Notes: generated from the sequence alone by a model not told the origin. A stretch of DNA of 64,000 bases from Candidatus Woesearchaeota archaeon (GCA_016181305.1 JACOZN010000010.1:149426-213425); one strand, 5' to 3'; shown: positions 9,998-23,222, counted from the first letter of the stretch. Numbers and translations are program-made.

Positions 9998-10837
9998 ATG
10001 GTTAAAGTTGGGGTATTGGGGCATACGGGAAGATTAGGAAAACCTTTAGTTGAAATTCTTAAACATCATCCTTATGCAGAAATAGTTTATACTCATAGTA
10101 CAAGTGAGCCCAGTAAAATAACTTTATCAGAATCCAAAGCTGAATTACTTTTCTCAGCTTTAGGGGAAGGAGCCAGTAAAGAATATGAACATGAATGGCG
10201 GGATATCAGGGTAATAGACCTTAGTATTGATCATAGATATCATCCAGAATGGACCTATGGTTTGCCTGAATTAAACAGGGGACAGATTAAAGGTGCGCAA
10301 TATGTTGCAAATCCTGGATGCTATGCAACTTCTATAATCTTAGGATTAGCCCCTATTAAGCACAAAGTTAGTGAAGTGAGTATACAAGCCAATAGCGGCA
10401 TTTCAGGAGCAGGTTTAGAAAAACAAGAAGAAGATAACTTCGGACCTTATAAAGAAGGACAATCTCATGAACAAATTCCAGAAATAGAAAGAAGTTTAGG
10501 GCTCCATGGTATTACACTATTTCCGCAAAGACTGGACAACACGGATAGGGGCATTATCTCAACAATTTTTGCAAAAATTGAAGGCTCTGAAGATTTGTTA
10601 GAAATTTACCGGCAATTTTATGCATCAGAATCTTTTGTTAGAGTGCAAAATCAGGATTACAAAATTGAAGTCAAAAAAGTAAATAGAACTAATTTCTGTG
10701 ACATTAAAACTTATAGATTTGGAGAGAGAATAACTGTTGTTTCCACATTAGACAACTTAATCAAAGGAGGTTCAGGACAGGCTGTGCAGAATTTTAACTT
10801 GATGTATGGTTTTGATGAGACTCTTGGACTAGTTTGA
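9998..10837 (+). CDS. argC: ArgC/LysY-like N-acyl-glutamyl/aminoadipyl phosphate reductase (short form)
   Basis: YGLPELNR, VANPGCYATS catalytic Cys, SGISGAG, LDNLIKGGSGQAVQNFNLMYG. Confidence 0.85.
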   Translation: MVKVGVLGHTGRLGKPLVEILKHHPYAEIVYTHSTSEPSKITLSESKAELLFSALGEGASKEYEHEWRDIRVIDLSIDHRYHPEWTYGLPELNRGQIKGAQYVANPGCYATSIILGLAPIKHKVSEVSIQANSGISGAGLEKQEEDNFGPYKEGQSHEQIPEIERSLGLHGITLFPQRLDNTDRGIISTIFAKIEGSEDLLEIYRQFYASESFVRVQNQDYKIEVKKVNRTNFCDIKTYRFGERITVVSTLDNLIKGGSGQAVQNFNLMYGFDETLGLV

Positions 10838-10862: not shown

Positions 10863-10877
10863 CGCAACCTTTAAATA
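10863..10877 (+). promoter_or_regulatory. BRE/TATA promoter of the aro operon
   Basis: CGCAACC-TTTAAATA (TATA 10870-10877); expected TSS about 10900-10903. Confidence 0.75.
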
Positions 10878-10905
10878 CCCCTCCATCTTACCCAACTCCC
10901 TGAAA

Positions 10906-11004
10906 ATGATAAGAAAAGCTGAAAATTTGATGGCGAGGATTGGATTTGCTTTCTACAGGCTTTTTTCCAGCTTCAGGTATTTCTTTTTTTATTTTAAGCA
11001 CTGA
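10906..11004 (+). CDS. Candidate Phe/Tyr-rich leader peptide (32 aa)
   Basis: MIRKAENLMARIGFAFYRLFSSFRYFFFYFKH*; 8 Phe + 3 Tyr in residues 14-30; ATG near predicted TSS; ends 70 nt before aroF. Confidence 0.7.
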   Translation: MIRKAENLMARIGFAFYRLFSSFRYFFFYFKH

Positions 11005-11033
11005 TTGGCTTCTTTATCAACAGAACGCTAATC
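11003..11033 (+). promoter_or_regulatory. Hairpin overlapping the leader stop codon
   Basis: GATTGGC-TTCT / loop TTATCAAC / AGAA-C-GCTAATC: 11 bp with one G-U pair and one bulge. Confidence 0.5.
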
Positions 11034-11074
11034 CCATTGTCTAAACATGATAAAAAACTAAACAAGGTGAGAAA

Positions 11075-12088
11075 ATGATTGTAGTGATGAAAAAGAATGC
11101 AACCGAAAACCAGGTGCAAAGAGTGGTTGAGAAGATACAGGAAAGCGGCTTGAAAGCGCACCTGTCGAAAGGAGATATAGTGACAATAATAGGGATTATA
11201 GGCGATGAAAGGAAAGTCCCGGAGTCGCAGATAAGGGCGATAGAGGGTGTGGAGAAGATTATGCCTGTGCTCGCCCCCTACAAGCTTGCAAGCAGGGACT
11301 TCAAGCCCGATAACACAATAATAAGCGTTGACGGGGTCAAAATCGGCGGCAATGAGGTTGTTGTGATGGCAGGCCCCTGCTCTGTTGAAAGCAGGGAGCA
11401 GATTATAGAAACTGCTAAAGCCATAAAAAAATCAGGGGCAAAAGTATTAAGAGGCGGCGCATTCAAGCCAAGAACATCGCCTTATTCCTTCCAGGGCTTG
11501 GGAGAGGAAGGGTTAAAATTGCTGAAGCATGCAAAGGAGGAAACAGGCATGCCGATAGTAACAGAGGTAATGGACACCAGAAACGTGCCTTTGGTGTGCA
11601 AGTATGCTGACATCCTGCAGCTTGGCGCAAGAAACATGCAGAATTATGACTTATTAAAGGAAGTCGGAAGGTGCAAGCGCCCTGTTTTATTAAAAAGAGG
11701 GCTTTCAGCTACAATAACAGAATGGCTCATGAGCGCAGAATACATAATGTCAGAGGGCAACCATAACATAATTTTGTGCGAGCGTGGCATAAGGACATTT
11801 GAAACTCTTACAAGAAACACTCTGGACCTGAATGCAGTGCCTGCTGTAAAGGAGCTAACACATTTGCCGGTTATAGTCGACCCAAGCCATGGGACTGGAA
11901 AGTATACTTTGGTCAGCCCGATGGCTAAAGCTGCAGTTGCCGCAGGAGCAGACGGGCTATTAATTGAAGTCCATACAAATCCTGAAAAATCAGTCAGCGA
12001 TGCCGACCAAACCATAAGCACAAAAAGATTTGAGAATCTCATGAGAGAGCTAAAGCTTATAGCAAGCGCAATAGGAAGAAAGGTGTAA
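11075..12088 (+). CDS. aroF: DAHP synthase, type I-beta with N-terminal regulatory domain
   Basis: AGPCSVES, RGGAFKPRTSPYSFQG, IGAR-like LGARNMQN, CERGIRTF, DPSHGTG, EVH; GGTGA SD. Confidence 0.96.
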   Translation: MIVVMKKNATENQVQRVVEKIQESGLKAHLSKGDIVTIIGIIGDERKVPESQIRAIEGVEKIMPVLAPYKLASRDFKPDNTIISVDGVKIGGNEVVVMAGPCSVESREQIIETAKAIKKSGAKVLRGGAFKPRTSPYSFQGLGEEGLKLLKHAKEETGMPIVTEVMDTRNVPLVCKYADILQLGARNMQNYDLLKEVGRCKRPVLLKRGLSATITEWLMSAEYIMSEGNHNIILCERGIRTFETLTRNTLDLNAVPAVKELTHLPVIVDPSHGTGKYTLVSPMAKAAVAAGADGLLIEVHTNPEKSVSDADQTISTKRFENLMRELKLIASAIGRKV

Positions 12089-12089
12089 G

Positions 12090-13178
12090 ATGGAAGTTGT
12101 AAAAGTTGATTTGAGGGAAGAGATAGACAACTCTTATGATATCACCATCGGCAGGGGCTTATTGGAAGGCCTTGCCATGGAACTAAAAAAAAATCCCGCA
12201 AATAAGTTTGTGATAATAACGGACTCCAATATTGCAGGAACCTATGGCAAAAGGCTCCTTAACGATTTGAAGAAGAGGAATATTGGCGCACATTTGATAA
12301 ATTTTCCCGCAGGAGAGAAAAGCAAGACAAGAAAAACAAAAGAAAAGATAGAAAATGAAATGCTTAAGCTTGCTTTAGGAAGGGATGCCTGCATCATTTC
12401 TCTTGGAGGCGGTGTTGCAGGGGATATTGCCGGGTTTGCAGCGGCAACCTACATGAGGGGAATTCCGTACATTCAGGTGCCTACAACCTTGCTTGCAATG
12501 GTTGACAGCTCCATAGGGGGAAAAGTTGCCGTTGATACTATGCATGCAAAAAACGCAATAGGCTCATTCTACCAGCCAAAAAAAGTTGTCGTTGACCTGA
12601 ATTTCCTTAAAACACTGCCAAAAAAAGAGTTGGTGAACGGGCTGGCAGAGCTGATAAAGCATGCCCTGATAAAAGACAGGGGTTTTTTCCATTTTATAGA
12701 AAAAAACATCGGCGGGATTCTGGCCTGTGATGCGGACATTTTGAAGACTGCGATAAAAAGGAGCTGCGAGATTAAAGCGGATATTGTGATGCAGGATGAA
12801 AAGGAAAAAGGAATTAGAAGAATCCTCAACTACGGGCATACAATCGGGCACGCTATTGAATCCTCATTGGGCTACAAAATAAGCCACGGCAATGCTATTG
12901 CCATTGGAATGGGCTATGCTGCAAAGCTTTCCGCCAAGCTTGGTTTTCTGCATGAAGGCTCTGTTATAAGGCAGAATAACCTGCTGGAATACATAGGACT
13001 GCCGCATAAGTTAAGCCATCACAAGCTAAAGCCCAGGAAGATACTTGAGCATATACAATACGATAAAAAAATAACGAACGGCAGAATAAATTTTGTATTG
13101 CTGAATTCCATAGGAGATGCATTTGTCTCTGATGATGTCGCGATAGAAGACATTAAAAATATTCTTGAAGAACGATAA
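12090..13178 (+). CDS. aroB: 3-dehydroquinate synthase
   Basis: GE.SK, GGGVAGDIAGFAAATYMRG, PTTLLAMVDSSIGGK, LNYGHTIGHAIE. Confidence 0.96.
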   Translation: MEVVKVDLREEIDNSYDITIGRGLLEGLAMELKKNPANKFVIITDSNIAGTYGKRLLNDLKKRNIGAHLINFPAGEKSKTRKTKEKIENEMLKLALGRDACIISLGGGVAGDIAGFAAATYMRGIPYIQVPTTLLAMVDSSIGGKVAVDTMHAKNAIGSFYQPKKVVVDLNFLKTLPKKELVNGLAELIKHALIKDRGFFHFIEKNIGGILACDADILKTAIKRSCEIKADIVMQDEKEKGIRRILNYGHTIGHAIESSLGYKISHGNAIAIGMGYAAKLSAKLGFLHEGSVIRQNNLLEYIGLPHKLSHHKLKPRKILEHIQYDKKITNGRINFVLLNSIGDAFVSDDVAIEDIKNILEER

Positions 13179-13179
13179 A

Positions 13180-14643
13180 ATGCTGGCAGCTGTAATAACA
13201 GAACTCAAAGACATTCCAAAAGCAAAAGATGCCGATTTGATAGAGCTGAGGCTGGATTATATAAAAGGATTGAATAATACAAAGCTAAAAAGCTTGATAG
13301 AAAACTGCAAGAAACCTGTAATTGTGACGAATAGGAAAAAGGGCGAAGGCGGCCTCTTTAATGGAAGCGAGGCAAAAAGAATTGAAATATTAAAAAATGC
13401 TATTAAATTTGGTGCAGGCTATGCTGATATTGAATATTCTTCAGGTAAAGAATCTATAAGAAATTTAATCCAAAATAAAAGGAAAACAAAGATAATTGTC
13501 TCTTACCATAATTTTAAAGAAACGCCGGCAAATATCAAAAAGATCTACGGCAATATCAAGAAATTAAATCCTGACTTGATCAAAATAGCCACTAATGCGC
13601 GCTCTGTCACTGACAACTTCAGGGTATTCGGCTTAATCGGGAAAGCGAATAAAGAGAAAAGGAAAATAATTGCTTTCTGCATGGGAGGCTATGGAAAATT
13701 CAGCAGAATCTTAAGCATAATTCTCGGCTCGCAGGTAACTTATGCGTCAACCGGCAAAGGAAAAGAATCCGCAGGCGGGCAATTAACAATGAATGAGATG
13801 GTTGAGCATTATAGAATTAAAAAAATAAATAAAAACACTAAAATTGTCGGCTTGATAGGAAATCCCGTTGAACATTCCTGGTCGCATATAATGCATAATG
13901 CCGCTTTTGATAGATTAGACATTAATGCAGTTTATCTGAAATTTCAGGCAGATAAGCTGAAAGAGTTTATTGAACACATGAAAAATCTGGATATAATCGG
14001 CTTTAGCGTCACAATCCCGCATAAAGTTGAAGTTATGAGATATCTTGATGAGATAGACAAACAAGCGAAGGGGATTAGCGCAGTCAATACTATTGTTGTG
14101 AAAAACGGCAGATTAATTGGGTACAATACAGACTGCCCGGGAGCCATAAAATCATTGAAGCGAATAACAGAATTAAAAGGAAAGAATGCTGTTGTCTTAG
14201 GTGCAGGCGGGGCAGCAAGGGCAATAATTTATGGTTTGATGGAGAATAAATCAAATGTTAAGATATTGAACAGGACTGCTGAAAAAGCAAAATTATTAGC
14301 TGATTATTTCAAGTGCGATTATGGCTCTTTAGATGATATTAAAAAAACTGATTATGATATTCTAATTAATACCACCCCTGCCGGAATGCACCCGCACATA
14401 GGCGGCTCCCCTGTTCCGCCCGACTGCATCAAAAACGGCGCTGTTGTTTTTGACATGGTTTTTAACCCTTACAAGACAAAATTGCTTGTTGAAGCTGAAA
14501 AGAGGAATTGCAGAATAATTGCCGGGTTTGAGATGCTGATTCACGGGGCTCTGCTGCAATTCAAGCTATGGACCGGAAAAGAAGCCCCAGAGCGATTAAT
14601 GCGGCTAAAAGTTATGGAGTTTTTAAAAAATGCTGGCCATTAA
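13180..14643 (+). CDS. aroDE: Fused type I dehydroquinate dehydratase / shikimate dehydrogenase
   Basis: ELRLD, SYHNF..TP, DLIKIA, then HSWSH.MHN, SVTIPHK, AVNTI, GYNTD, GAGGAARA; start moved to ATG 13180. Confidence 0.93.
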   Translation: MLAAVITELKDIPKAKDADLIELRLDYIKGLNNTKLKSLIENCKKPVIVTNRKKGEGGLFNGSEAKRIEILKNAIKFGAGYADIEYSSGKESIRNLIQNKRKTKIIVSYHNFKETPANIKKIYGNIKKLNPDLIKIATNARSVTDNFRVFGLIGKANKEKRKIIAFCMGGYGKFSRILSIILGSQVTYASTGKGKESAGGQLTMNEMVEHYRIKKINKNTKIVGLIGNPVEHSWSHIMHNAAFDRLDINAVYLKFQADKLKEFIEHMKNLDIIGFSVTIPHKVEVMRYLDEIDKQAKGISAVNTIVVKNGRLIGYNTDCPGAIKSLKRITELKGKNAVVLGAGGAARAIIYGLMENKSNVKILNRTAEKAKLLADYFKCDYGSLDDIKKTDYDILINTTPAGMHPHIGGSPVPPDCIKNGAVVFDMVFNPYKTKLLVEAEKRNCRIIAGFEMLIHGALLQFKLWTGKEAPERLMRLKVMEFLKNAGH

Positions 14644-15886
14644 AACAAAAAAATATGTCAAAGCTGTGATTGAAGCGCCGCCATCAAAAAGCTATACCCA
14701 GAGGGCTTTGGTGATTGCAGCTCTTGCCAACGGCAAATCAGTTATAAAAAACCCGTTATTCAGCGACGACACCTGCCATATGATTTCTGCGTTGAAAGCG
14801 TTTGGGGCAAGGATAGAGAGAAAAGGCAGCAGCCTTGCTGTTTACGGAACAAACGGAAAGCTCAAGCAGCCAAAAGGCAGGATTTTTGCAGGGAATGCAG
14901 GCACGACAATGCGGTTCATAACAGCTTTTGCCTCCCTTGCTGACGGGGCTTCTGTAATAACAGGAGACAAGAGGATGCAGCAACGTCCAATAAACGACCT
15001 GCTTGATGCACTGCGGCAATTAGGGGTGAAAAGCGAAAGCAGCAGCGGATGCCCGCCTGTAAAGATTTACGGGGGAAATTTTATCGGCGGAACTGCGAAA
15101 TTAAAAGGCAGCATAAGCAGCCAGTATTTATCATCCATTCTTATGGTTGCGCCATACGCCGAAAAGGATGTAAAAATAAGCATTACGGGGAACCTGGCAT
15201 CAAAGCCGTATGTTGACATAACCATAGATGTCATGAAGAATTTTGGAGTTGACATAAAAAATGTAAAATATGAAAAATTTATAATAAAAAACACCAAAAA
15301 ATACAAATCTGGGGATTATGCTGTTGAGGGCGACGCCTCGAGCGCGAGCTACTTCTTTGCAGCAGCTGCCGTGACAAAAGGAAGAATAATGGTAAAGAAT
15401 ATAAACCCCAAATCAAAACAGGGAGATATAAAGTTTGTTGACATACTAAAAAGAATGGGGTGTGGCGTAAGGAATGGAAACAGCTTTATCGAGGTGCAGG
15501 GTGGCAGCCTCAAAGGCGTTGATGTTGACATGAACGAGATGCCTGATATCGTGCCTACACTTGCTGTGACGGGCCTTTTTGCAGATTCGGCAACCACAAT
15601 AAGAAATGTGCCCAACCTGCGGCTGAAGGAGACTGACAGGCTTAGGGCCCTGGCGTTTGAACTTAGAAAGACAGGCGCCAATGTGGAAGAAATGCAGGAC
15701 GGATTGCGTATAAAAAGAAGAAGGCTGCAAAAAGCGATAATTGAAACTTATAATGACCACAGGATGGCAATGAGCTTTGCCGTAGCGGGCTTGGTTATCA
15801 ATGGGATAAGGATAAAAAACCCAGGCTGCGTTGCAAAATCATTTCCTGATTTTTGGGAAAAATTCAACGAGATGTATAAAAGATGA
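14630..15886 (+). CDS. aroA: EPSP synthase
   Basis: PPSKS, GNAGTTMRF, SSQYLS, KETDRL, DHRMAM. Confidence 0.96.
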   Translation: MLAIKTKKYVKAVIEAPPSKSYTQRALVIAALANGKSVIKNPLFSDDTCHMISALKAFGARIERKGSSLAVYGTNGKLKQPKGRIFAGNAGTTMRFITAFASLADGASVITGDKRMQQRPINDLLDALRQLGVKSESSSGCPPVKIYGGNFIGGTAKLKGSISSQYLSSILMVAPYAEKDVKISITGNLASKPYVDITIDVMKNFGVDIKNVKYEKFIIKNTKKYKSGDYAVEGDASSASYFFAAAAVTKGRIMVKNINPKSKQGDIKFVDILKRMGCGVRNGNSFIEVQGGSLKGVDVDMNEMPDIVPTLAVTGLFADSATTIRNVPNLRLKETDRLRALAFELRKTGANVEEMQDGLRIKRRRLQKAIIETYNDHRMAMSFAVAGLVINGIRIKNPGCVAKSFPDFWEKFNEMYKR

Positions 15887-16392
15887 ATATAGCGCTTATA
15901 GGCTTCAGGGGAACTGGCAAAACAACCTTATGCAGGCTGCTTGCCAACAGGCTCGACAGGAAGCTCATATCAACAGACGAGGAAATAGAGAAGAGAACAA
16001 AAATGAGCATAGCCAAGTTTGTGAAAAAATACGGCTGGGAGAGGTTCAGGGAAATCGAGGCCGATGTTATAGAAAGCATCAGCGACTTTGATGACTGTGT
16101 GTTTGACACGGGCGGAGGCATTATAATGAGGAATGAGAATATTATCAACCTGAAAAAAAACACTTTGATTGTGCTGCTGACTGCTGATATAAAGACAATA
16201 ACAAGCAGGCTCAAAAACAATAAAAGGCCTGCACTGACGAAAAGCAATTACCTTGACGAGATAAAGGATGTACTGAAGGAGCGCGAGGAAAGGTACAAAA
16301 CAGCAGCGGATTATGCCATTGACACGTCAAGGCTGGCTCCTGAAGAGGCATGCGATTTGATTATGCACTATGTGCAGATGGAGATGCAATAA
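15883..16392 (+). CDS. aroK: Shikimate kinase, bacterial P-loop type
   Basis: GFRGTGKTT Walker A, DEEIE, FRE.E, TGGG, RP.L; not the archaeal GHMP type. Confidence 0.92.
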   Translation: MNIALIGFRGTGKTTLCRLLANRLDRKLISTDEEIEKRTKMSIAKFVKKYGWERFREIEADVIESISDFDDCVFDTGGGIIMRNENIINLKKNTLIVLLTADIKTITSRLKNNKRPALTKSNYLDEIKDVLKEREERYKTAADYAIDTSRLAPEEACDLIMHYVQMEMQ

Positions 16393-16394
16393 AA

Positions 16395-17477
16395 ATGTCC
16401 AATTCTTTCGGAACACTGTTCAGGATAACAACATGGGGCGAGAGCCACGGAAAGGCGATCGGGGTTGTAGTAGACGGATGCCCTGCCGGGCTTGAGCTGG
16501 GCGGAGAAGATGTGCAGAGAGAGCTTGATAAAAGGGCGCCGGGGCAGAGCGAGGTAACGAGCCCGAGAAAAGAGGCTGACAAAGCTGAGATTCTTTCAGG
16601 AGTATTTGAAGGCAAGACCACAGGAACCCCCATATCAATGGTTATCTGCAACAAAGATGCAGATTCCTCAAAATATGAAAAAATAAAGCACTTGCTGAGG
16701 CCGGGGCATGCAGACTTCACTTACCAGGTTAAATACGGCTTTAGGGATTACAGGGGCGGGGGAAGAAGCTCTGCGAGGGAAACAGCTGCAAGGGTCGCTG
16801 CCGGCGCGATTGCAAAAAAACTGCTTGCAAAGCATGGGATAACCATCATCGCTTATGTCAGGGAAATTGCAGGCATAAAGGCTACTAAAATAGACTTTAA
16901 GGAGGTTTACAAAAATGATGTTAGGTGCCCTGACAGGAATGCAGCAAAAAAGATGGAGCATGCTATCCTTAAGGCTAAAAACAGCGGAGATTCTGTCGGA
17001 GGCATCTGCGAAATTATAGCGTTAAATGCGCCTGCAGGCTTGGGCAAGCCCATCTACAACAAGCTGGAGTCCGACTTGGGTTCTGCAATACTGGGCATTA
17101 ATGCTGTGAAAGGCGTCGAGTTTGGCGCCGGATTTGAACTTGCAAAGATGAAAGGCAGCCGATCAAATGACGAGTTCATTGTAAAAAACAATAAGATCAC
17201 CACTAAAACCAACAATCACGGAGGCATTCTTGGCGGGATTTCCACAGGCATGCCTATTGTAATAAGGGCAGTTGTAAAGCCTGCATCCAGCATATTAAAG
17301 AAGCAGCATACAATCAACTACAAAACTATGAAGCAGGAGACAATCTCGGTGGAAGGCAGGCACGACCCCGCAACTATTGTGAGGTTTCCGCCTATAGCAG
17401 AAGCAATGGCTGCAATTGTGCTGGCAGACCACATGCTGATGGCGGGAAAGATAAATCCTGACAAGCTTATAAAGTGA
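16395..17477 (+). CDS. aroC: Chorismate synthase
   Basis: TWGESHG, RPGHAD, GGGRSSARETAARVAAG, GRHDP; start moved to ATG 16395. Confidence 0.96.
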   Translation: MSNSFGTLFRITTWGESHGKAIGVVVDGCPAGLELGGEDVQRELDKRAPGQSEVTSPRKEADKAEILSGVFEGKTTGTPISMVICNKDADSSKYEKIKHLLRPGHADFTYQVKYGFRDYRGGGRSSARETAARVAAGAIAKKLLAKHGITIIAYVREIAGIKATKIDFKEVYKNDVRCPDRNAAKKMEHAILKAKNSGDSVGGICEIIALNAPAGLGKPIYNKLESDLGSAILGINAVKGVEFGAGFELAKMKGSRSNDEFIVKNNKITTKTNNHGGILGGISTGMPIVIRAVVKPASSILKKQHTINYKTMKQETISVEGRHDPATIVRFPPIAEAMAAIVLADHMLMAGKINPDKLIK

Positions 17478-18313
17478 TTTCTATGGTTACGGTAGGCATA
17501 ATCGGCGGCACCGGGCAGATGGGGCAGTTTTTCAGGAGATTTTTTGAGAAGAACAAATGCAGGGTTTTGATTGCCTCGAGAAAAACAAAATTAAAGCCGG
17601 AAGACTGCGCAAGGCAAAGCGATGTTGTTTTGGTTTCTGTGCCGATGGATGTGACTGTGGGAGTAATCAAAAAAATAGCCAGTTGCATCAGCAAGAATTC
17701 CCTGCTGATTGATACAACCTCCATTAAAAACGAGCCTGTCAAAGCCATGCTTAAGCATGCAAAATGCGAAGTTATAGGGATGCACCCTGTTTTTGGGCCG
17801 AATGTAAATTCATTGAGGAGCCAGACTGTTGTTTTGTGCCCGGCAAGAACAAAAAAATGGCTGCAGTGGCTGAAAGGCATTTTCGAGAGAAATGGCGCAA
17901 GGGTGAAATTATCAACTCCTGAAAAGCATGACGAGATGATGTCTGTAATACAGGGCTTAAATCACTTCAGCACCTTAAGCGTTGCCCATGCCATGAAGAT
18001 GCTTGGCATAAGCGTGAAAGAAAGCCTGGAATACACAAGCCCGGTTTACAGGCTTAGGATGGCTATGGTCGGCAGGATATTAAAACAGGACCCAAACCTG
18101 TACGCAAGCATAGAGATGATGAATCCAAAAAACAAAGATGTGCTAAAAGCTTATGCAGAATCCTCAAAAAAGCTCAGGAGTATAATTGAAACAAAAGACA
18201 CAAAGGCATTTTTGGAGTATTTTAACGAGTGCTCTAAGTTTTTTGGCGGCTTTAAAGAAGAGGCTGAGGAATTAAGCGATTACCTGATAGGGCAGATGGT
18301 GAAAAGGAAATGA
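17474..18313 (+). CDS. tyrA: Prephenate dehydrogenase
   Basis: GGTGQMG Rossmann, D.TSIK, GMHPVFGP, EKHDEMM..IQGL.H; may start at ATG 17483. Confidence 0.92.
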   Translation: MISMVTVGIIGGTGQMGQFFRRFFEKNKCRVLIASRKTKLKPEDCARQSDVVLVSVPMDVTVGVIKKIASCISKNSLLIDTTSIKNEPVKAMLKHAKCEVIGMHPVFGPNVNSLRSQTVVLCPARTKKWLQWLKGIFERNGARVKLSTPEKHDEMMSVIQGLNHFSTLSVAHAMKMLGISVKESLEYTSPVYRLRMAMVGRILKQDPNLYASIEMMNPKNKDVLKAYAESSKKLRSIIETKDTKAFLEYFNECSKFFGGFKEEAEELSDYLIGQMVKRK

Positions 18314-19119
18314 AAATAGCAACCCTTGGCCCGGAAGGCACTTTCAGCCACGAGGCTGCCATGAAGTATGATAGGAAGGCATCAATAATTTTTACAGATA
18401 CAATAAGGGACGTGTTTGAAGCAGTTTCAAAAAATAAGGCTGACTGCGGAATTGCACCAATTGAAAACTCCATTGCAGGAACCGTTGGGCAAACTCTGGA
18501 TTACCTAATGGAGTTCGGGCTTAAAACAAAGGCAGAGGAAATACTTCCGATAAGGCATAACCTTGCGGGGTTCGGAAAAATTAACGGAATAAAAATAGTT
18601 TACCTGCATCCGCAGACTTATGAGCAGTGCGAGATTTTTATCAAAAGAAACCTTCCCAAGGCTGAAGTACTGCAGACGTCAAGCAACGGGAAATCAGCTG
18701 AAATGCTCGCCAAATCAAAATCAAAGGAAGATGCTGCCATAATACCCAAAATTGCTGCTGATATATACGGGCTTAAGATTCTGAAAAAGGATGTGCAGGA
18801 TGCAAAGTTCAACGTTACAAGGTTCTTTGTGATTGCAAAGAGCGACAGCAAAAAAACCGGCTATGACAGGACTAGCATAGCACTATATCCCCAGGTTGAC
18901 AGGCCCGGACTGCTTTACGAGATGCTTGGCGAGTTTGCAAAAAGAAAGATTAACCTGACAAAAATTGAGTCAAGGCCTTCGAAAGGCAAGCTCGGCGACT
19001 ATATCTTTTACATAGACTTTGAAGGGCATAAATCAGAAAAGCACATAGGAGAAGCCCTGAAACAGCTTGAGAAATCCGCGTTTGTAGCAGTGCTTGGCAG
19101 CTACCAGAGAAAGTATTAA
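18310..19119 (+). CDS. pheA: Prephenate dehydratase with ACT domain
   Basis: LGPEGTFS, PIENS..G, TRF, DRPGLL, LTKIESRP. Confidence 0.95.
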   Translation: MKIATLGPEGTFSHEAAMKYDRKASIIFTDTIRDVFEAVSKNKADCGIAPIENSIAGTVGQTLDYLMEFGLKTKAEEILPIRHNLAGFGKINGIKIVYLHPQTYEQCEIFIKRNLPKAEVLQTSSNGKSAEMLAKSKSKEDAAIIPKIAADIYGLKILKKDVQDAKFNVTRFFVIAKSDSKKTGYDRTSIALYPQVDRPGLLYEMLGEFAKRKINLTKIESRPSKGKLGDYIFYIDFEGHKSEKHIGEALKQLEKSAFVAVLGSYQRKY

Positions 19120-19134
19120 AATAACTTCGATAAA

Positions 19135-20022
19135 ATGCCGAAAAATGAATTAGATGAATTATCTGAGGAAGAAAAGAAGCTGGAAGCCTATTGGAACGAG
19201 GTTCTTATCAATTTAAAAGATCGAAATGGCAGAATAGATCTTGGTTATATATGGACTGATGAAGTAAAAAAAGGTTTTGAAGGAATCAAAAAAGAATTAG
19301 GGAAGATTACTTTTATTCTTGGAAAATTGCATGTACATTACAAAACAGATAAAAAAAAGTATAATAAAGAAATTAATGATATTAGAAATTTGCTTCGGTA
19401 TATTAGCAAAATAAAACCTACAGCTGAATGGGTTAAACAAGTTCTTATTGATTTGCAACAAATCGTATCGGATGTTGAAAGTGAAAAATTAGGAAAGATA
19501 GCTTTAAATATTTCTTATAAATTAGGACGAGAACTGATAAGAAATTTTTTCCCAGACATACCTTCGCATCGTATTTTTGTACATATATTTTTTGTGGAAG
19601 AGTCAAAAGAAATTCCAGGTTGGTTTACTCAAAAAGATCCTCTGGGGTATACAGTTACTGGACCTATGCCAATGTCTCTGATTAAACTAAATAACTATGA
19701 ATCTATCTTAAAAGGCTTACTTGGACATGAATTTTCTCATATTGTGTTGGGGCATAATGACGGACTTAGGAATAGAGTATATGGATTTTTTTCTAAAAGA
19801 TTTAGGCTATTTGGTAGTAGAATTACAGGAGCAACTATAGGAGCAATGGAAAAAGCAGCTGATAAAGAAACAATAAGAAGAGGTCTTGGGAAAGAGTTAT
19901 ACCAAAGTACTGCATATTTCGAAAGTTTAGCAAAACAATACGGAAAAGAAAAAGAGAGGTATCAAAGTGGTCGCGTAGGCTATACTAGCGAACAAATAAA
20001 AGCATTAATTAATGAAAAATAA
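19135..20022 (+). CDS. AT-rich hypothetical protein with HExxH zinc-metallopeptidase-like motif
   Basis: GLLGHEFSHIVLGH; no signal peptide; low GC. Confidence 0.65.
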   Translation: MPKNELDELSEEEKKLEAYWNEVLINLKDRNGRIDLGYIWTDEVKKGFEGIKKELGKITFILGKLHVHYKTDKKKYNKEINDIRNLLRYISKIKPTAEWVKQVLIDLQQIVSDVESEKLGKIALNISYKLGRELIRNFFPDIPSHRIFVHIFFVEESKEIPGWFTQKDPLGYTVTGPMPMSLIKLNNYESILKGLLGHEFSHIVLGHNDGLRNRVYGFFSKRFRLFGSRITGATIGAMEKAADKETIRRGLGKELYQSTAYFESLAKQYGKEKERYQSGRVGYTSEQIKALINEK

Positions 20023-20033
20023 TTGTATATAAA

Positions 20034-21554
20034 ATGGACATCAAGAAACTGGCAGAAAGCCTGAATCCAGCCGAGAGAAAAGTTGTGAAGATTCTTGATA
20101 ATTTCAGCTCTTTCCATGATATTGTGAAAGCTACAGGGCTTAAGGATGTCGAGGTTGCAAGGGCATTGCAGTGGCTCCAGAACAAGGGCGTCATAAGGCT
20201 AAAGGAAGAGCAGAAAGAGCTTGTTTCTCTTGATGAAAACGGCGGGAAATACCTGAAACATGGGTTGCCTGAAAAAAGGTTTTTGGAACTGCTGGAAAGG
20301 CCGGCTGGCATAGGCGAATTAAGGAAAAAAACCGGGCTAAGCGACGAGGAAATTTCAATATCGCTTGGAGTCTTAAAATCAAAGGCCGCTATTGAGATAC
20401 AAAAGGGCAAGAATATTATTGTGTCGATAACAGACAACGGAAGGCATCTGCTGAAGAAAGGCTTTATTGAAGAGCAATTTCTCAAAGAGAATTTTCCAAG
20501 AGATGCAGCATCCCTTAATGAAGAGGAAAGATTCGTGCTCGGGAATCTAAGAAAAAGAAAAAGGATAGTAAAGGTTGAGCTGACAAAGATTGTAGATGCA
20601 GGGCTTACTGAGATAGGCAAGAGATTATTAAAAGAAAAGCTTGAAGAAGGCTTAATAGAAAAAATAACTCCGTCTTTAATAAAAACAGGCGCCTGGAAAA
20701 ACAAAAAATTCAGAAGGTTTGATGTAAAGGTCAATGTCCCTTCAATTTTTGCAGGGAGAAAGCAGCACTACAGGAGATTTCTCGAAGAGGTTAGGCAGAA
20801 ATTTGTTGCCCTTGGATTCAAGGAAATGACCGGGCCTGTTGTTGAAAGCGATTTCTGGGATATGGATGCACTGTACATGCCGCAGTTCCATTCGGCAAGG
20901 GACATCCACCAGGGCTATTACATAAAAGAGCCGAAATACGCCAAGGATTTGCCTGAGAATGCTGTTAAGAATGTAAAAGCTGCTCATGAAAACGGCTTTG
21001 GGACCGGAAGCAGGGGCTGGCGATATGATTTTGACGTGAAAAAAACCCGCAGGCACATCCTAAGGACTCATGACACATCAATATCAGCAAGAACTCTGGC
21101 TTCAAGGGAGCTAAAAATTCCAGGCAAATATTTCCAGGTTGCAAGATGCTTCAGGTATGATGTGATTGACGCAACACACCTGCCTGACTTCAACCAGGTG
21201 GGGGGATTTGTGATAGAGGATGGCATGAATTTCGGGCACTTAAAGGCCCTGCTGAAGCTCTTTGCAAAGGAGTTTGCAGAAACAGAGGAAGTAAGGGTAA
21301 AGCCGAGCTATTTTCCGTTTACGGAGCCGAGCGCTGAGCTGCAGGCAAAGCACCCCGAGATGGGGTGGATAGAGCTTGCAGGAGCAGGCATTTTCCGTCC
21401 GGAATTGGTCAAGCCATTGGTTGGAAAAGAAGTGCCTGTTATTGCGTGGGGAGTGGGGCTTGACAGGCTGGCAATGTTCAAGCTCGGAATAAAAGACATA
21501 AGACAATTATTTTCACATGACCTGGAGTTTTTAAGAAATGCAAAAGTAGTCTGA
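20034..21554 (+). CDS. pheS: Phenylalanyl-tRNA synthetase alpha subunit (archaeal long form)
   Basis: D.LY.PQFHSARD, LRTHDTS, FRYD.IDATHL..F.Q, YFPFTEPS, GLDRLAM. Confidence 0.96.
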   Translation: MDIKKLAESLNPAERKVVKILDNFSSFHDIVKATGLKDVEVARALQWLQNKGVIRLKEEQKELVSLDENGGKYLKHGLPEKRFLELLERPAGIGELRKKTGLSDEEISISLGVLKSKAAIEIQKGKNIIVSITDNGRHLLKKGFIEEQFLKENFPRDAASLNEEERFVLGNLRKRKRIVKVELTKIVDAGLTEIGKRLLKEKLEEGLIEKITPSLIKTGAWKNKKFRRFDVKVNVPSIFAGRKQHYRRFLEEVRQKFVALGFKEMTGPVVESDFWDMDALYMPQFHSARDIHQGYYIKEPKYAKDLPENAVKNVKAAHENGFGTGSRGWRYDFDVKKTRRHILRTHDTSISARTLASRELKIPGKYFQVARCFRYDVIDATHLPDFNQVGGFVIEDGMNFGHLKALLKLFAKEFAETEEVRVKPSYFPFTEPSAELQAKHPEMGWIELAGAGIFRPELVKPLVGKEVPVIAWGVGLDRLAMFKLGIKDIRQLFSHDLEFLRNAKVV

Positions 21555-21566
21555 ATAACAGATAAA

Positions 21567-23222
21567 ATGCCGACTATAACCTTTTCACTGAAAGATTTGC
21601 AGCGTTTGGCAGGCAAAAAACTGGAGATTGGGGAAGTCACAGAGCTTGCGCATTACGGAAAGGGCGATGTTGACAGCTATGACAAGGAAACTGATGAAGT
21701 GAAAATTGATTTTGGAGACACTAACCTGCCTTATTTGTGGAGCGCAGAGGGATTTGCACGATTGATAAAGGGAATACTCGGAATGCAAAAGGGTGTTCCT
21801 GAAATAAAGCTGCAAAAAGGCGACTATCGGGTCATTGTTGACAAGTCTGTTGCAGAAATACGGCCTTTCATTGCCTGCTTTGCGGCAAAGGGCAGGAAGA
21901 TTGACGACTATCTGCTTAAGCAGCTTGTGCAGCTGCAGGAGAAGTTCTGCGAAACTTACGGAAGAAGAAGGCAGAAGGTTTCAATCGGACTGTATTCCTA
22001 CAAAAGGCTCGCTTTTCCTGTGTATTACAAGGCTATTTCTCCTTCAATCGAGTTTGTGCCTTTGGAGTTCAAGGCAAAAATGAGCCTGAAAGAGATACTT
22101 GCAGAGCACCCAAAGGGAAAAGAGTACGCATGGATTCTTGAGGGATTTGACAAATATCCTGTGCTTATTGACAACAAAAACGAGATGATGAGCTTTATAC
22201 CGATAATCAACTCAAATTTTACAGGAAAGCTTGAAATTGGGGACGAGAACCTGTTTTTTGAGGCCACCGGAACGGATGAGGAAGCTGTTAACCTGGCTGC
22301 AAACATTTTTGCCTATGCCCTGTCTGACAGGGAATTTAACATTTATTCCGCAGAGGTAAAATATCCCGGCAGAAAGGCTGTTGCCCCATGCCTGAAAATC
22401 GAGAGCATTCACATAAAGAATGAGCAGATAAAATGGTTATTTGGATTGGAACTTAAAGAGAATGAAGTAAAGCATCTTCTTGAAAAGGCGCAGTATAATT
22501 ATAGCGATTATAAAGTTGAGATTCCGCCTTACAGGCAGGACATAATGCACCCTTTTGATGTTATAGAGGATATCGGGATTATGTATGGGTATGATAATGT
22601 AAAAGAGCTTCCATTAACTACCTATACAACAGGCTCTGCGTTGAAGGGTAAAGAGTTTATTGACAAAGTAAGGGAAATTATAGTCGGCTTGGGCTACCAG
22701 GAAATTATGAGTGCAGTGCTGACTAATAAGGATTTTCTGTATAAAAAAATGAATATCGGGGATTTTGGGACTATTGAAATTGAGGACTGCATGTCGGAGA
22801 ACTACTCTGCTGTGAGGAGCTGGATTCTTCCAAATTTGATGGAGGTTTTCTCAAAGAACAAGCATGTAGAGTTTCCGCAGAAAATCTTTGAGGAAGGCAT
22901 TGTCAATGTGAGAAAAAGCGGGGAAATTGCTGATTTTAACAGGATTGCGATTGCGAGCTCCCATGAGAATTCAAACTACACGGAAATGAGGCAGGTGCTT
23001 GATTACATAATGAAATGCTTTGGGCTCAAGTGCGACATTGAGGAGGCAGAGCACGGCTCTTTCATTGAGGGAAGATGCGGAAGGGCAATTGTCCATGGAA
23101 AGAAAATTGCTTATCTGGGGGAAATAAACCTGCAAGTTCTGGAAAACTGGAATTTGGATATGCCGGTTGCTGCTATGGAACTGAATTTGAGCGAAATGTT
23201 TGAGATAATTAAAAATAAATAA
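21567..23222 (+). CDS. pheT: Phenylalanyl-tRNA synthetase beta subunit (archaeal)
   Basis: MPTI start, QLQEK....GR.R.KVSIG, PIINS, PPYR.DIMH..DVIEDI, GRCG. Confidence 0.95.
   Translation: MPTITFSLKDLQRLAGKKLEIGEVTELAHYGKGDVDSYDKETDEVKIDFGDTNLPYLWSAEGFARLIKGILGMQKGVPEIKLQKGDYRVIVDKSVAEIRPFIACFAAKGRKIDDYLLKQLVQLQEKFCETYGRRRQKVSIGLYSYKRLAFPVYYKAISPSIEFVPLEFKAKMSLKEILAEHPKGKEYAWILEGFDKYPVLIDNKNEMMSFIPIINSNFTGKLEIGDENLFFEATGTDEEAVNLAANIFAYALSDREFNIYSAEVKYPGRKAVAPCLKIESIHIKNEQIKWLFGLELKENEVKHLLEKAQYNYSDYKVEIPPYRQDIMHPFDVIEDIGIMYGYDNVKELPLTTYTTGSALKGKEFIDKVREIIVGLGYQEIMSAVLTNKDFLYKKMNIGDFGTIEIEDCMSENYSAVRSWILPNLMEVFSKNKHVEFPQKIFEEGIVNVRKSGEIADFNRIAIASSHENSNYTEMRQVLDYIMKCFGLKCDIEEAEHGSFIEGRCGRAIVHGKKIAYLGEINLQVLENWNLDMPVAAMELNLSEMFEIIKNK

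Follow-up and report, generated by a model that had tools for sequence, protein, structure and literature searches.

Leader-peptide attenuation is a textbook mechanism of bacterial gene regulation, and the tnaC leader of Escherichia coli senses free tryptophan through its nascent peptide and blocks Rho. In the enterobacterial pheL-pheA and pheM-pheST systems, a short ORF with a run of Phe codons lies upstream of Phe genes, its translation is Shine-Dalgarno-dependent, and a terminator hairpin with U-tract competes with an antiterminator (pheL, PMC3082878). Mixed aromatic codons (F-Y-F) directly precede the DAHP synthase gene in the aroF leader of Corynebacterium glutamicum (PMC4046766). Mycobacterial polycysteine sORFs are leaderless first cistrons with the regulatory codons at the 3' end; there the codon tract pairs with the Shine-Dalgarno sequence in front of the following gene and control is translational (bioRxiv 10.1101/834739).

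A first-pass annotation of the DNA analysed here knew of no described Phe/Tyr leader attenuator in DPANN archaea, and full-text literature searches indeed returned no paper on leader-peptide attenuation in archaea. An archaeal study names promoter recruitment as the only known target of archaeal transcriptional regulation (PMC8448881).

Here we report on the aro operon of a groundwater archaeon of the Candidatus Woesearchaeota (DPANN; order Woesearchaeales), in front of which lies a leader ORF with Phe and Tyr codons. The analysed stretch of 64,000 nucleotides is called the window. Comparison across lineages showed a conserved ORF with biased codon use, whose stop codon is overlapped by a hairpin. 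The ribosome-mediated Phe/Tyr attenuator of the first-pass annotation fared differently in its two parts: regulation by the leader peptide is well supported by comparison, but the specific mechanism, which made the T-run of the Phe codons the terminator, is unsupported.

Results

Organization of the aro locus and its promoter

The organism was recognized as archaeal because the window encodes TBP, and its closest named relatives are groundwater MAGs designated "Candidatus Woesearchaeota archaeon". The features of the locus are compiled in Table 1. The promoter elements, the ATG, the reading frame and the stop codon placed here at first pass were all recovered in the sequence.

Table 1 Features of the leader region and the aro operon in the window
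Feature	Position	Strand	Basis or remark
Promoter: BRE-like CGCAACC directly 5' of the TATA box TTTAAATA (10870-10877)	10863-10877	+	Alignment: kept in congeners
Leader ORF P0001, 32 codons, ATG 10906, TGA 11002-11004, no Shine-Dalgarno	10906-11004	+	ORF scan, conservation
Terminal aromatic run YFFFYF, proposed stalling site	10978-10995	+	Contains T7 tract 10984-10990
Hairpin P1, proposed OFF element; 5' arm 11003-11013, 3' arm 11022-11033	11003-11033	+	Folding, alignment
CATTG just 3' of the hairpin (11035-11039) and small second stem with ACATGAT	11035-11051	+	Alignment, other genera
Shine-Dalgarno GGTGAG of aroF, as for an operon-internal cistron	11066-11071	+	Sequence, alignment
Operon aroF-aroB-aroD-aroE (fusion)-aroA-aroK-aroC-tyrA-pheA	11075-19119	+	Pfam scans
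Unknown ORF, then pheS-pheT, same strand after the operon	19135-23222	+	Pfam scans

The motif TTTAWATA has a single match between 10801 and 11100; it lies upstream of the leader ORF, and the stretch from there to aroF holds no other. Genome-wide, the distance from the motif to the start codon peaks sharply at exactly 30 nt (53 genes, with 96 in the range 29-32 nt), and a Shine-Dalgarno-like motif was found for just 144 of 834 long ORFs; leaderless mRNAs appear to be the rule for most first cistrons of this genome. The leader ORF had been called probably leaderless. It lacks a Shine-Dalgarno sequence and begins close to the transcription start predicted near 10900, but the spacing between TATA box and ATG is 36 nt against the genome peak of 30 nt (29-33 nt in many related leaders), and therefore a 5' untranslated region of about 6 nt is predicted rather than a strictly leaderless start.

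The first gene of the operon, aroF, encodes a DAHP synthase I with FXD domain and the last, pheA, a protein with PDT and ACT domains. The Pfam scans thus bore out an operon ending in tyrA-pheA; the proposed match of a Trp-free leader to an operon without trp genes fits as well, trpA having not been found in the window genome, an assembly of 78% completeness. Upstream are genes for a TrmB-type regulator, a split transketolase, a transaldolase, an unknown ORF, a DRG-type GTPase and an argC-like dehydrogenase. The last of these, an argC-like semialdehyde dehydrogenase gene at 9998-10837, separates the DRG GTPase gene from the leader promoter in the window genome, and in most congeners the GTPase gene directly adjoins the leader.

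The nearest aroF outside the lineage is bacterial, with about 60% identity (Omnitrophota, Anaerolineales, Elusimicrobia), which makes a bacterial origin of the operon probable. In these three groups, the aroF loci nearest to the archaeal one mostly lack such a leader ORF; transfer of the leader together with the operon is neither shown nor excluded by the comparison.

Composition of the leader peptide

A recount confirmed that Phe and Tyr make up 11 of the 17 residues at positions 14-30 and that the peptide lacks Trp; the aromatic codons occupy positions 14, 16, 17, 20, 23 and 25-30. Genome-wide, Phe and Tyr together account for 8.7% of codons. Among the 13,201 short ORFs (10-50 codons) of the 1.07-Mb genome, the leader alone has F, Y or W at eight of its last ten residues, and at least six of ten are reached by 26. 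The aromatic run is far beyond chance. Scanning the genome for runs of single amino acids yielded no further product-matched leaders, most biosynthetic operons being absent there.

Conservation within the genus

Orthologs of aroF were found in 25 of 43 congeneric genomes. The leader of the window belongs to a group of 16 distinct congeneric sequences, termed type 1, in which frame and stop are kept and the start codon is ATG or GTG. Upstream regions of related genomes had been proposed as the place to look for a small ORF whose F/Y enrichment persists through synonymous changes, and this is what they contained: across codons 9-32 a minimum of 12, 15 and 32 substitutions is required at first, second and third codon positions, and synonymous changes affect the codons for Arg, Lys, Leu, Ser, Gly, Ala, Phe and Tyr. 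Most replacements at aromatic sites are between Phe and Tyr, which interchange at positions 14, 23, 28, 29 and 32.

Two other reading frames were considered and rejected. An antisense ORF at 10888-11001 lies in codon register with the leader, so that the variation falls on its own first positions. A +1 frameshift track leaving from the T run would follow a window ORF (10940-11044) that is open through the hairpin but is not conserved; in most congeners the +1 frame ends at a TAG within the hairpin's 5' arm, and the remaining frame meets a stop immediately.

Seven other congeners have, in the same position, an unrelated leader of 20-24 codons, termed type 2, which ends in FYFWQ or a variant of it; in five of the seven the trp operon lies immediately upstream of this leader. 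Two type-1 loci (L006 and L012, in genomes G005 and G023) carry a gene of about 145-160 amino acids between the leader with its hairpin and aroF, and the leader would therefore control whichever gene comes first in the operon.

Locus L048 (genome G058, contig 42, oriented) has an intact type-1 promoter and leader at 1470-1565, 3' of the DRG GTPase gene, but a convergent gene of 218 amino acids interrupts the type-1 hairpin behind the 5' arm. Past this gene come the trp operon, a leader of type 2 and an aroF that belongs, with 82% identity, to the type-1 lineage. The arrangement has the appearance of a cassette of regulator, trp operon and leader inserted between leader and aroF.

Conservation across the order

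In other genera of the same order, 54 regions upstream of aroF were searched under a fixed criterion, an ATG-started ORF of 12-60 codons with F, Y or W at no fewer than six of the last ten residues. The sense strand carried such an ORF in 24 of the 54 loci, the antisense strand in no locus, and the scores were bimodal (0-4 versus 6-8). The unpublished genomes G174, G250 and G415 contribute to none of the results. In these leaders the N-terminal halves are unrelated and the C-terminal aromatic run is common to them. Measured in 27 leaders, the distance from the last aromatic codon to the stop is 0-2 codons, and in 17 of them this codon is itself the last sense codon. Outside the order, the same leader class was not found in six loci, several of them with uncertain aroF starts. 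A metagenome search with a degenerate DNA pattern for F..[FY].YFFFYF was abandoned because the pattern was too T-rich; among the matches listed, all but L147 and L181 were attributed to chance matches in T-rich DNA of no relation to the leader.

Tryptophan codons give a further comparison. A trpA gene was found in the genome of origin for 13 of 15 Trp-containing leaders and for 8 of 21 Trp-free leaders (Fisher p = 0.006, for lineages that are related to one another), which is suggestive of Trp in the leader tracking the trp gene content.

These data bear on whether the ORF has a sensing role at all. It could instead encode a functional aromatic-rich micropeptide, as the conservation of the type-1 peptide over its full length within the genus would allow, or be the untranslated by-product of a T-rich regulatory region. 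Between genera, however, only the C-terminal aromatic run is shared; the unrelated N-termini indicate that codons were selected, not a micropeptide. The place of the ORF is always 5' of aro genes, and Trp in it goes with the trp genes present in the genome. The third-position variation in the plus frame excludes an antisense ORF and a constraint purely at the nucleotide level, and the absence of antisense candidates from the 54 loci points the same way. The patterns are those expected of regulatory codons and argue against a functional micropeptide. We consider a product or by-product without sensing role highly unlikely, and a role of the leader peptide as sensor likely.

The trp loci of the lineage have short ORFs of their own. 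In L043-L048, of which L044-L048 are the trp loci of congeners G041, G051, G018, G021 and G058, trpE is preceded by a TATA box and a short ORF of 9 to about 30 codons that appears to be leaderless; at its end stand a single Trp codon, a further codon and the stop. A T-rich stretch lies directly 3' of this ORF in L045-L048, and in L046-L048 the ATG of trpE follows about 20 nt past the ORF with no obvious Shine-Dalgarno sequence. This ORF is a candidate Trp-sensing leader of different design. All six loci share a palindrome, AAAGAC..GTCTTT, in a conserved divergent promoter region beside the start of an opposite-strand gene of 218 amino acids, which may be a trp regulator.

The hairpin at the stop codon

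The hairpin reported at first pass to overlap the stop codon proved to be a general feature. In the window it begins at the G of the TGA, and all 27 leaders examined have a hairpin that begins -9 to +2 nt relative to the last nucleotide of the stop codon, with stem sequences that are wholly different between genera. Leader hairpins are more stable than those at the ends of 300 ordinary genes of the genome (median -9.8 versus -3.8 kcal/mol; Mann-Whitney p = 3e-8). Against dinucleotide shuffles, z is below -2 in 9 of 20 lineage representatives and -2.0 in the window. The proposal to fold the leaders for covariation had a divided outcome: the type-1 stem is paired in 98.9% of cells and contains one compensatory change from G-C to A-U, which is linked to a TGA-to-TAA change of the stop, but covariation within the genus is not significant (53 of 500 shuffles reach the score), there being too little variation.

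The motif CATYG follows 0-5 nt past the hairpin in at least nine leaders of different genera and types (L250, L258, L266, L270, L288, L298, L301 and others) and is not enriched at ordinary gene ends of the genome. In line with the first-pass annotation, a terminator scan of the window found no bacterial-type hairpin-plus-U terminator and no other terminator-like site, and the hairpin has no U-tract behind it. A terminator-like hairpin followed by T6-T8 is present in a minority of relatives (L010, L034, L270, L277, L300). Ordinary gene ends of the genome carry T-runs without a preceding hairpin; the hairpin or CATYG as general terminator of this genome was accordingly discarded.

No antiterminator was found. 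RNAalifold yielded only the hairpin and a helix between A-rich and U-rich segments within the ORF, which do not compete. This intra-ORF helix is compatible with the sequences, but it was rejected for want of covariation support and of useful competition with the hairpin. The element GGATTGG, previously suggested to compete for the 3' arm of the hairpin, is present at 10937-10943. Its role as a competitor was not sustained: the helix is sequence-compatible but has one pair broken in 5 of 13 sequences, its covariation is not significant and it does not compete usefully with the hairpin. By eye, two leaders from other genera have no counterpart to it, and the ORFs of L258 and L288, likewise from other genera, contain no complement of the 5' arm. 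Rfam gave no match at gathering score in the window; between 10800 and 11150 no leader family matched even at E up to 10, the only hit being a chance match to ylbH on the opposite strand.

The T-run of the Phe codons

The first-pass annotation had placed the signal in the aromatic run itself, whose T7 tract would serve as a termination or FttA-entry signal and be masked by a stalled ribosome, sensor and terminator being one sequence. The triplets TTC-TTT-TTT are indeed free of synonymous variation in 14 of the 16 type-1 leaders. Aromatic runs are inherently U-rich, and Phe and Tyr codons end in T slightly more often in the leaders (69% and 76%) than in the genome (61% and 51%). FttA (TIGR03675), moreover, scores above cut-off in 29 of the 43 congeners, with about 900 bits in 24, and a cryo-EM review (PMC13681488) describes it as favouring U-rich RNA, a preference that counts in favour of the tract as terminator. 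The tract is missing, however, from two type-1 leaders (L012 and L034), and none of the type-2 leaders has it, their T runs reaching 3-5 at most; the genome holds 181 runs of T7 or longer inside genes, not depleted relative to composition. Expressome geometry further suggests that, with the polymerase on the tract, a coupled ribosome would still be well upstream and could not mask it. A terminator in the T-run would also leave the universally conserved hairpin unaccounted for. We therefore judge it unlikely.

The region between the leader and the next gene

Between the leader stop and the next gene, which is not always aroF, lie 66-360 nt. This bears on an alternative in which control is translational: the U-rich aromatic run or the hairpin region would pair with the purine-rich ribosome-binding site of aroF, and a stalled ribosome would free that site. 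Of 10 full-length minimum-energy folds, three (L005, L009, L013) have the U run paired with the GGTGA/A-rich stretch ahead of aroF, and the leaderless polycysteine ORFs of mycobacteria are a precedent for such control (bioRxiv 10.1101/834739). Against it, the pairing is weak (A-U and G-U) and inconsistent, the U run pairing in other folds with the A-rich 5' end of the ORF. By eye, the aromatic runs of L258, L272 and L288 contain no CCUCC complement to their GGAGG-type sites. Together with the variable distance and identity of the next gene, this makes translational attenuation rather unlikely.

A factor acting at the end of the ORF is the last alternative. As in tnaC, a ribosome arrested there, perhaps aided by the nascent peptide, would block an FttA-like factor that acts beside the stop, at the hairpin and CATYG. 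In all leaders the proposed stall site lies right against the stop, CATYG is conserved 3' of the hairpin across genera, and both the full-length conservation of the type-1 peptide within the genus and the occurrence of FttA in the lineage agree with this possibility. The unrelated N-termini of different genera argue against a specific arrest peptide, however, and we know of no FttA recognition motif of the hairpin-plus-CATYG kind. No ortholog of FttA (aCPSF1) was found in the window genome at its 78% completeness, which also counts against the factor, though this is probably an assembly gap. Exclusion of a factor is, on this evidence, improbable.

Discussion

On balance we favour, by a modest degree of confidence, the reading that the ORF at 10906-11004 is a cis-acting leader which gauges charged tRNA-Phe and tRNA-Tyr for the aro-tyrA-pheA operon and attenuates its expression through the hairpin. 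Transcription would begin a few bases before the ATG, and ribosomes would load without a Shine-Dalgarno sequence. With plentiful Phe and Tyr the ribosome would cross the aromatic codons, terminate at the TGA and depart; the hairpin would then form, and most transcripts would end short of aroF or be shut off there in some other way. Under scarcity of Phe or Tyr, the ribosome would stall on the last aromatic codons, its mRNA channel would cover the 5' arm and the hairpin would be blocked. RNA polymerase would then continue into aroF, whose Shine-Dalgarno sequence would recruit ribosomes. Such an attenuator would have two parts only, the ribosome itself being the anti-hairpin element and an antiterminator unnecessary.

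Stalling and occlusion of the hairpin are, in our estimate, fairly probable. Beyond a late sense codon in its A site, a ribosome encloses about a dozen more nucleotides on the downstream side, and a stalled ribosome would therefore cover the 5' arm. In the window, two non-aromatic codons (Lys and His) separate the aromatic run from the stop, so that only a stall on the last Phe codon would reach the hairpin. A ribosome at the stop codon covers the 5' arm as well, and the switch must therefore rest on dwell time.

The output is the weakest step, and termination of transcription is proposed here tentatively. It is favoured because ORF, hairpin and CATYG form a conserved unit whatever the distance or identity of the next gene, and because some relatives have the terminator-like tails described above. 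Archaeal polymerases terminate at oligo-T, with or without FttA, and to our knowledge archaeal RNA polymerase neither needs hairpins nor responds to them.

Extended to the Woesearchaeales, the comparison leaves room for a form of ribosome-mediated attenuation that may operate with a near-leaderless ORF, closing with a run of codons for the end products, and a stop-overlapping hairpin, with no antiterminator and no obligatory U-tract. If this were true, archaeal RNA polymerase, alone or with FttA, would take a nascent hairpin as a stop signal, and the coupling of transcription and translation would serve gene-specific regulation in archaea. Together with the candidate leaders of the trp operons of congeners, it would amount to a general amino-acid sensing strategy of the lineage.

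A candidate attenuator with an archaeal promoter and no bacterial terminator/antiterminator pair, conserved across an order of uncultivated DPANN archaea, is of interest in two further respects. If it works, its roughly 170 nt would be a compact and portable test system for the coupling of archaeal ribosomes and RNA polymerase, for the effect of a nascent hairpin on archaeal termination, and for FttA-type termination against translation. Furthermore, organisms often called amino-acid auxotrophs would appear to place an acquired shikimate pathway of bacterial type under the control of its end products.

Comparison with known systems

Among bacterial aroF loci, the leaders L119 (Desulfurellales), L079 and L096 (Clostridia/Bacillota) resemble the archaeal one in being F/Y/W-rich ORFs but, unlike the window, have canonical hairpin-T7 terminators 25-60 nt past the stop. 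The C. glutamicum aroF leader shares the mixed aromatic codons and the position directly upstream of the DAHP synthase gene. With the mycobacterial polycysteine sORFs the present leader has in common the position as first cistron, with a start predicted to be nearly leaderless, the regulatory codons at the 3' end and the operon downstream as the presumed target, whereas pairing of the codon tract with the next Shine-Dalgarno region is seen here in 3 of 10 folds. As in tnaC and Rho-dependent attenuation of E. coli, the regulatory ribosome would stand at the end of the leader ORF and shield the RNA next to the stop; in contrast to tnaC, the codon runs point to the sensing of tRNA.

Close counterparts are pheL and pheM. 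Here, pheA lies within the operon and pheS-pheT behind it, and the presumed stalling logic is alike. The archaeal leader differs from them in its TATA promoter, the missing Shine-Dalgarno sequence, a codon run that abuts the stop and a hairpin that overlaps it. With the trpL/pheL/hisL class as a whole it shares a same-strand ORF in the 5' leader of the cognate operon, a promoter upstream of it, an excess of codons for the end products, and conservation of frame and regulatory codons while other positions drift. The hairpin-U terminator and the mutually exclusive antiterminator of that class are both lacking in the window. Since these are two of its defining structural features, we regard the archaeal leader not as a member of the class but as a variant set apart from it.
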